A stretch of 42,124 bases of DNA from a virus. Its lineage: Duplodnaviria > Heunggongvirae > Uroviricota > Caudoviricetes. The stretch covers positions 1-42,124 of IMG/VR virus record IMGVR_UViG_2909282993_000003; one strand, given 5' to 3'. Positions within the stretch are counted from its first letter, which is position 1. Each line of letters opens with the position of its first letter. The notes below the pieces were generated by a model. It had not been told where the DNA came from and searched no databases. It saw nothing but the letters and a program-made list of their open reading frames with translations. Shown here piece after piece: positions 15,740 through 16,049 of this stretch. A program made the translations under genes and the position numbers.

Positions 15740-15815
15740 GGCCCTTTAGCTCAGTGGTGAGAGCGAGCGACTCATAATCGCCAGGTCGCTGGTTCAAATC
15801 CAGCAAGGGCCACCA
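15740..15815 (+). tRNA. tRNA with CAU anticodon (Ile2/ileX-like or Met)
   Basis: 76-nt cloverleaf folded by hand: acceptor GGCCCTT/AAGGGCC, D arm GCTC/GAGC, anticodon loop CTCATAA, T loop TTCAAAT, 3' CCA encoded; closely resembles recalled host ileX. Confidence 0.85.
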
Positions 15816-15816
15816 A

Positions 15817-15893
15817 CCGCCACTGGCTCATCAGGAAAGAGCGTCAACCCTTTAAGTTGAGTGTGCGAGGTTCGAGTCCCCGGTGGCGGTCCA
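15817..15893 (+). tRNA. tRNA-like gene, anticodon ambiguous (loop CCTTTAA; reads UUU with a non-canonical C33); possibly degenerate
   Basis: Acceptor CCGCCAC/GTGGCGG, D arm GCTC/GAGC, T loop TTCGAGT, CCA encoded; T stem has one mismatch; anticodon loop lacks the conserved U33. Confidence 0.5.
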
Positions 15894-15895
15894 GT

Positions 15896-15971
15896 GCCGA
15901 CTTAGCTCAGTAGGTAGAGCAACTGACTTGTAATCAGTAGGTCACCAGTTCGATTCCGGTAGTCGGCACCA
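15896..15971 (+). tRNA. tRNA-Thr (anticodon UGU)
   Basis: Acceptor GCCGACT/AGTCGGC, D arm GCTC/GAGC, anticodon stem ACTGA/TCAGT with loop CTTGTAA, T loop TTCGATT, CCA encoded. Confidence 0.85.
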
Positions 15972-15974
15972 TAT

Positions 15975-16049
15975 GCGGGCATCGTATAATGGCTATTACC
16001 TCAGCCTTCCAAGCTGATGATGCGGGTTCGATTCCCGCTGCCCGCTCCA
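15975..16049 (+). tRNA. tRNA-Gly (anticodon UCC)
   Basis: Acceptor GCGGGCA/TGCCCGC, anticodon stem TCAGC/GCTGA with loop CTTCCAA, T loop TTCGATT, CCA encoded; resembles recalled host glyT. Confidence 0.85.

Follow-up and report, generated by a model that had tools for sequence, protein, structure and literature searches.

Between the antiterminator gene Q and the lysis genes of this virus lies a tightly packed tRNA cluster whose second member, here called element 2, has an unusual anticodon loop and a mismatched T stem. The locus thus raises the question of what this gene is: a decayed tRNA, a decoy or a tRNA with unusual decoding, as the original prediction proposed, or a working tRNA. We addressed this question for the window, the whole stretch of 42,124 nucleotides that was analysed, and for related loci. 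We conclude that element 2 is probably an anticodon-shifted paralogue of argN in the course of decay, most likely no longer working.

The tRNA cluster and its three canonical genes

We found that ARAGORN calls four tRNA genes on the + strand, with the anticodons CAU, UUU (called Lys), UGU (Thr) and UCC (Gly). The same four match the Rfam tRNA family RF00005 (gathering score, 29 bits), scoring 72.5, 43.1, 73.8 and 64.9 bits for tRNA 1, element 2, Thr and Gly, respectively; their E-values, calculated for the whole window, lie between 4e-14 and 5e-6, so none of them is a chance match. Only 1, 2 and 3 nt separate the genes, and all four encode their CCA. Four packed tRNA genes after Q had been claimed earlier, and the ARAGORN and Rfam coordinates are exactly those of that claim, with Q identified by Pfam. 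The features of the region are as follows.

14834..15529, + strand: Q antiterminator gene, upstream of the cluster (Pfam Phage_antiter_Q, E=5e-92)
15513..15541, + strand: pR'-like promoter match at the Q gene's end, TTGCAA-17-TATATT (promoter scan, consensus match only)
15590..15626, + strand: tR'-like hairpin followed by seven consecutive T, located after Q and before the tRNAs (inverted repeat 15590-15601 / 15608-15619)
15702..15730, + strand: promoter-like site with the sequence TTGCAA-17-TATTAT, its end 9 nt ahead of tRNA 1 (promoter scan)
15740..15815, + strand: tRNA 1, anticodon CAU, ileZ homologue (ARAGORN; Rfam 72.5 bits; NCBI pipeline tRNA-Ile)
15817..15893, + strand: element 2, tRNA-like gene of the argN family, nominal anticodon UUU (ARAGORN; Rfam 43.1 bits)
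15896..15971, + strand: tRNA-Thr(UGU), identical to host thrU (ARAGORN; Rfam 73.8 bits)
15975..16049, + strand: tRNA-Gly(UCC), identical to host glyT (ARAGORN; Rfam 64.9 bits)
16257..16282, + strand: terminator-like hairpin with a T run, after the cluster and before the holin gene (terminator scan)
16342-16557: holin gene, P21-type (Pfam Phage_holin_2_1)

The promoter, hairpin and terminator signals around the cluster are consensus matches only. That the pR'-like match acts as pR' is suggested by its place in a lambdoid late region, and the hairpin at 15590-15626 is a putative tR'. The second promoter-like site, which is followed by a G+C-rich stretch (CCTGCGCCC), is possibly the cluster's own promoter. 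Upstream lie DUF968, rusA and Q (the equivalent place in RefSeq is annotated 'bacteriophage antitermination protein Q'), and downstream a P21-type holin, DUF1327 and lysozyme. The locus is best explained as a tightly spaced tRNA operon in a lambdoid (Qin/P21-like) prophage, flanked on one side by Q and its pR'/tR' signals and on the other by the lysis genes.

The gene that tRNA 1 matches in Stx phage records bears the label ileZ, and tRNA 1 is most likely tRNA-Ile2, reading AUA after lysidine modification. The phage Thr and Gly genes are base-for-base equal to thrU and glyT of the chromosomal tufB operon. In the E. coli thrU-tyrU-glyT-thrT-tufB operon, however, thrU and glyT are 209 nt apart (an 8-nt spacer, the 85 nt of tyrU and a 116-nt spacer), whereas the gap in the phage is 3 nt, and the flanks are unrelated. 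The phage Thr/Gly junction is a precise fusion of exact copies of the two host genes.

Across the 38 long ORFs of the window, ATA accounts for 19% of Ile codons, ACA for 23% of Thr, GGA for 19% of Gly and AAA for 71% of Lys. The shares of ATA, ACA and GGA are about twice those of the E. coli genome; that of AAA is not raised. Codon supplementation therefore fits tRNA 1 and the Thr and Gly genes, which are best explained as ordinary decoders of AUA, ACA and GGA/GGG, codons heavily used by the prophage, but it gives no reason for an extra Lys tRNA.

Element 2 and the argN family

Element 2 reads CCGCCAC-UG-GCUC-AUCAGGAAA-GAGC-G-UCAAC-CCUUUAA-GUUGA-GUGUG-CGAGG-UUCGAGU-CCCCG-GUGGCGG-U-CCA. Its anticodon loop, CCUUUAA, is 7 nt long and carries C33 in place of U33, the uridine of the U-turn, which is nearly invariant among elongator tRNAs (PMC5041475). 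The review that reports this names two exceptions, C33 in the eukaryotic initiator tRNA-Met and G33 in the Candida tRNA-Ser (PMC5041475). Element 2 resembles the initiator in its C33, but the initiator has a dedicated role, and we saw no sign of a comparable specialisation in element 2. Another register of the loop, with U33 or with 8 nt, was rejected: it leaves no paired stem, and the alignment with the loops of canonical relatives is base by base.

In the Rfam alignment, the sole non-standard pair among the four stems is A51·C63 in the T stem. The C33, the mismatched T stem and the encoded CCA of the original prediction are thus all present in the sequence or in this alignment. As an oddity, however, the mismatch is weaker evidence than had been implied: an A·C T-stem mismatch is also found in host thrU, and A51·C63 itself in the classical Stx2-phage argN. 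We therefore gave this criterion less weight, and rejected it as proof of decay.

A thermodynamic model put the cost of A51·C63 to the cloverleaf at about 7 kcal/mol, and a repair of A51 to G regained about 7. The allele of the window also carries A9G, a minor variant (4/94 loci), which lets G9-G10 pair with C64-C63 and makes the best fold more stable than the cloverleaf by 8.4 kcal/mol; in this model, A9G is predicted to favour a misfold with a competing extended helix. The model leaves out tertiary contacts and modifications, and we used only the relative cost of the cloverleaf from it. Minimum-free-energy folding was rejected as a test of tRNA-likeness because several canonical neighbours also lack the cloverleaf as their best fold.

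Element 2 passes the RF00005 threshold with 43.1 bits (E=5e-6, whole window), about 10 bits under the 53-57 of its canonical relatives. Its conserved core is all present (U8, A14, G18G19, A21, G53, T54-Ψ55-C56, A58 and C61), together with a purine at 37, the 7-nt loop and the 3' CCA; U8 is missing in a common sister haplotype. The acceptor stem begins with the pair C1-G72, and U73 and an encoded CCA follow it. The anticodon is UUU, with U35, and not the UCG or UCU, with C35, of an arginine tRNA. With this anticodon the gene combines the 36-UAA-38 motif required for t6A37 (PMC13276492), as a Lys(UUU) tRNA would. The outcome named as refuting the original prediction, a canonical fold and anticodon from a tRNA predictor, was half realised: a cloverleaf and Lys-UUU were returned, the latter by ARAGORN, and the NCBI pipeline annotates a tRNA-Lys on a 100% identical copy. 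The non-canonical features are nonetheless real. In place of A73, a LysRS identity element, element 2 has U73, as does a canonical Lys-UUU relative, L258.

By its sequence, element 2 is homologous to argN, and it occupies the argN slot behind a homologue of ileZ. This emerged from the comparison with the ileZ-argN-argO cluster that had been suggested with the original prediction. Element 2 has an argN-type body, comprising the acceptor stem CCGCCAY/RUGGCGG, U73 and the D and T arms, and it sits directly after the ileZ homologue; it and argN differ mainly in the anticodon arm. In BLAST, tRNA 1 and element 2 are 84-92% identical to the ileZ-argN pair of Stx2 phages. Aligned over its full length, element 2 is 83% identical to Stx2-phage argN, 88% to an Arg-UCU gene (L082) and 90% to L258, in a family that ranges from 80-90%. 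L082 and L258 are canonical relatives with the acceptor stem, U73 and D arm of element 2.

The ileZ-argN-argO cluster of 933W-type Stx2 phages also lies downstream of Q. Its first gene is 100% identical to tRNA 1 over the 3' 26 nt, and its second shares with element 2 the C1-G72 pair, U73, the D arm, the T arm and, in the Stx2/Stx2c form, A51·C63. The two clusters differ in that the argN loop is CUUCGAA (Arg UCG) rather than CCUUUAA, with a compensatory pair in the anticodon stem; that cluster has argO where this one has host-derived Thr and Gly genes, and stx is found there and lysis genes here. The cluster is accordingly a known kind of object, and we regard the C33 gene as a new member of the ileZ/argN cluster family. 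Our search of open-access papers for ileZ/argN/argO brought up nothing specific on the function of argN or on element 2, and our literature searches found nothing on the C33 class, which appears to be undescribed so far.

Searching IMG/VR with anchors that lay within the element or beyond it, and also one genome per species, we obtained 292 loci with an ileZ homologue and the slot that follows it. The slot was found to hold the following forms.

Arg-UCG genes, mostly fully canonical: 140 loci (and 5 more with A37G)
The CCUUUAA type of the window: 102 loci
The CCUUUAA type with internal deletions in the anticodon arm: 4 loci
Genes with a loop of 11 nt, many of them also with the T loop wrecked: 30 loci
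Canonical Arg-UCU with the body of element 2: 2 loci
Canonical Lys-UUU (L258): 1 locus
Remaining forms, comprising three hybrids of argN and argO and three singletons: 6 loci

L258, with the loop CUUUUAU, a perfect T stem and the UCAAC/GUUGA anticodon stem of the window, is the only canonical Lys-UUU contig of its kind in the full IMG/VR scan. Rfam scores fall from 56.7 bits for Arg-UCU and 56.0 for argN to 53.2 for L258, 43.1 for the window and 30.8 for the Edwardsiella form; the U8C, D-stem-deletion, 11-nt-loop, Salmonella and Citrobacter forms are below the threshold of the Rfam tRNA family.

Several of these forms are unusual in their own right. Anticodon loops of 6 nt occur in Salmonella diarizonae (L125, CGGGAU), Citrobacter amalonaticus (L135, CAGGAU) and Edwardsiella hoshinae (L130, UUUGAG), on stems that are otherwise good, and ARAGORN calls these genes 'tRNA-???'. 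The 11-nt loop, AYGAUAACAGG, is conserved in sequence and sits on an intact ACGAC/GUUGU stem in about 30 loci, including Stx2e prophages (L003 1622-1702; L262, L290, L167, L236); many of these forms have a 6-nt T loop, GCGGGU, and one is labelled tRNA-OTHER by the NCBI pipeline. In the hybrids (L268, L285, L316), the 5' half of argN continues, from the anticodon loop on, as the 3' half of argO, and the acceptor strands are non-complementary; recombination or deletion between adjacent tRNA genes thus seems to occur in the slot. The Stx2/Stx2c argN (L002 1617-1693) has an argN-type 5' half, a window-type T arm with A51·C63 and two acceptor G·U pairs, and looks like a chimera, less canonical than the argN of other prophages (L136).

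Lesions in element 2 and its proposed history

Lesions were scored as broken pairs, indels or changes at a universal position relative to each gene's consensus, at loci anchored outside the measured gene. We found new lesions in 29.6% of the IMG/VR copies of element 2 (108 loci), compared with 6.8% for tRNA 1, 10.6% for Thr and 14% for Gly (Fisher p=4e-6 for the excess over the neighbours, the copies not being independent). They include a 1-nt deletion in the D stem, U8C, broken pairs and internal deletions in the anticodon arm, with at least five different indel alleles. As would be expected of a pseudogene or relic, then, the copies of element 2, which are not phylogenetically independent, show more disabling damage than the flanking genes and the sister lineages.

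The C33 form is present in 797/5,426 complete E. coli genomes. Among 40 hits evenly spaced down the ranking, the NCBI pipeline called a tRNA-Lys in 18 and no tRNA at all in 22. In a second sample, the same pipeline called the adjacent tRNA-Ile in 16/16 cases, the C33-type slot in 7/16 and the argN-type slot in 24/24 (Fisher p=8e-4 and 4e-5, values that overstate the case since the copies are not independent). The sampled E. coli copies that were not called as tRNA, more than half, carry extra lesions. Two virion-derived phages have the consensus allele, which their annotators left uncalled; in a third phage, a C2U allele is called Lys. Together, the IMG/VR lesions and the NCBI pipeline calls favour the first of the options originally named, a decayed tRNA.

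We judged function by Rfam scores and NCBI pipeline calls. Detection by ARAGORN was rejected as a proxy for function because it is too lenient, still calling the U8C and D-stem-deletion alleles Lys. The flanking intergenic DNA was unusable as a neutral reference for diversity, since these flanks form a mosaic with little homology from one locus to the next.

Several observations nevertheless speak against decay. The consensus C33/A51 allele outnumbers the canonical Lys form in IMG/VR by more than 100 contigs to 1, and it is present in phages isolated as virions. Apart from A51·C63 its stems are intact, with the common changes C2U, C4U and C11U each keeping a G·U pair, and it retains 36-UAA-38, G18G19, the T loop and CCA. 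In terms of distinct lesioned alleles the excess is modest (10, against 4-9 in the neighbours), and 7-14% of the neighbour copies also have lesions, indicating that prophage tRNAs are generally weakly constrained. In addition, across 74 distinct alleles of the slot, pairing is 97% in the acceptor stem, 97% in the anticodon stem and 92% in the T stem, values that largely reflect the recent common ancestry of the alleles, and compensatory switches occur at 7-66, 27-43 and 30-40. Pairing and switches suggest that the argN family was long held as a folded tRNA, which for the family of element 2 is a point against decay.

The direction of change can be read from the canonical relatives, all of which have U33, G51 and a perfect T stem, so that C33 and A51 are derived in element 2. 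A single C35U separates the Arg anticodon UCU from UUU, and the change of the stem pair G30-C40 to A30-U40 is compensatory. We propose that the lineage of element 2 passed in this way from an Arg (UCU) anticodon to UUU, with the compensatory change in the stem, and that it would later have gained U33C, losing the uridine of the U-turn, and G51A, which broke the T-stem pair. Constraint has presumably been relaxed since, and decay would be ongoing. Element 2 is probably still co-transcribed and may still offer RNase P an acceptor/T-arm helix, so that 5' cleavage of element 2 would release tRNA 1 at its 3' end. Should element 2 be charged at all, the amino acid would be lysine, since LysRS recognises its substrate chiefly by the UUU anticodon. 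Carrying lysine on a UUU anticodon, it would be harmless and could persist.

These findings bear mainly on annotation: the 'tRNA-Lys' of hundreds of E. coli genomes is borderline and probably a non-functional relative of argN, and pipelines disagree on it. The gene also offers a small, clear example of a phage tRNA gene that would have shifted its anticodon by one transition and then decayed, while its operon neighbours stayed intact.

Alternative roles for element 2 and nearby RNA elements

Could element 2 be a functional tRNA-Lys(UUU), retained for its resistance to host anticodon nucleases that break down tRNA-Lys? AriB of PARIS, PrrC and RloC are candidates for such nucleases, and element 2 would restore AAA/AAG decoding in lytic growth, like the tRNA-Lys variant of phage T5. 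We consider this explanation unlikely, although several observations fit it. AriB requires U36-A37-A38-U39-C40|A41; cleavage is lost with U39A, reduced with A41C and impaired with U16C, and T5 escapes AriB by means of variant tRNAs (PMC12409363). Element 2 has U36-A37-A38-G39-U40-U41 and C16, lacking the AriB site and U16, and would be expected to escape; moreover, its UUU adjoins Thr(UGU), the other prime target of AriB (PMC12409363). The family does include a canonical Lys-UUU gene (L258), the C33 allele is widely distributed and occurs in phages derived from virions, and a Lys tRNA that codon supplementation does not explain needs another rationale.

However, G39, the U40/U41-type stems and C16 were inherited from Arg-decoding ancestors and represent no specific adaptation. 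No resistant tRNA-Thr(UGU) variant accompanies element 2: its partner is a gene identical to host thrU, which keeps the exact UAAUC|A site and U16 and by the published determinants would be cut. U73 instead of A73, C33 and A51·C63 point away from efficient charging and decoding, and further lesions in more than half of the genomic copies are unexpected under positive selection. We also looked for a tRNA-targeting system encoded by the prophage itself; in the annotation of one related prophage, 88-99% identical to the window in mosaic blocks, there was no PARIS, PrrC or similar system.

The tRNA-Lys(UUU) of T5 is likewise a phage-borne UUU tRNA without U39-C40-A41 and with C16 (PMC12409363). 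In contrast to element 2, it belongs to a virulent phage with 24 tRNAs and is a canonical Lys tRNA shown to rescue infection; element 2 has C33, U73, a T-stem mismatch and an Arg-tRNA origin, and is decaying in many genomes. In a broader form of the argument, temperate lambdoid phages of E. coli would carry the Lys(UUU)/Thr(UGU) pair against PARIS-like defences, with the C33 tRNA as a resistant substitute or competitive decoy and the slot as an arms-race locus. An arms race would explain the range of loops (UCU, UCG, UUU, 6-nt and 11-nt) on a conserved body, yet we give this proposal little credence. Were this minority reading true, tRNA-based escape from anticodon nucleases would not be confined to large virulent phages such as T5; common prophages, among them relatives of Shiga-toxin phages, would use it as well.

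It is similarly improbable that element 2, without decoding, is kept as a folded tRNA-like RNA, either as a processing spacer or as a decoy for a tRNA-binding host factor. As a spacer, its RNase P site would mature the 3' end of tRNA 1 in the tightly spaced precursor, which suits gaps of just 1, 2 and 3 nt. A folded body without a decoding role would also accord with slot stems that are 92-97% paired with compensatory switches while the loop varies (canonical 7 nt, 6 nt, 11 nt), and with internal deletions that drop the anticodon arm and keep the acceptor and T arms (L263, L295, L302). The high pairing, however, is largely due to the relatedness of the alleles, and many alleles damage the body too, through the D-stem deletion, U8C, the wrecked T loops of the 11-nt-loop type and acceptor mismatches. 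The tRNA cluster of phage T4 includes the stable tRNA-like species 1 and 2, which do not decode and are co-processed with the cluster. Element 2 would resemble these as a non-decoding tRNA-like RNA inside a phage tRNA cluster, but species 1 and 2 are conserved RNAs of a virulent phage. For the decoy version, the AriB study itself mentions that viral tRNAs, when overexpressed, might act by competition (PMC12409363).

Finally, the original option of unusual decoding, for instance by suppressing frameshifts or stop codons or by recoding, is very unlikely: it draws only on C33 and on non-U33 tRNAs in special decoding such as the Candida tRNA-Ser with G33 (PMC5041475), whereas the loop has exactly the standard 7 nt and matches the canonical Lys-UUU relative position by position, UUU is a sense anticodon, and the gene decays across the population. 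An anticodon-shifted argN paralogue in decay thus remains our preferred explanation of element 2.

Other putative RNA elements lie near the cluster. Two perfect inverted repeats, at 16056-16101 (arms of 11 nt with 24 nt between) and 16109-16181 (arms of 16 nt with 41 nt between), stand between the last tRNA and the holin gene, without an Rfam match. In related loci, one to four copies of the STnc100 sRNA lie just 3' of the tRNA cluster (L258, L263, L270, L136, L262, L007), and AgvB lies just downstream of it in one; at the curated Rfam thresholds, neither matches in the window. From the pR'-like promoter to the tR'-like hairpin (15538-15622), there are sub-threshold matches of 22-25 bits to isrK and isrJ, which are Salmonella prophage sRNAs. 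Elsewhere in the window, Rfam identifies DicF (4534-4585, - strand), sok, a hok/sok-type antitoxin RNA (12280-12454, + strand), and the IS009 RNA (41881-42084, + strand), a set that fits a Qin-like lambdoid prophage.
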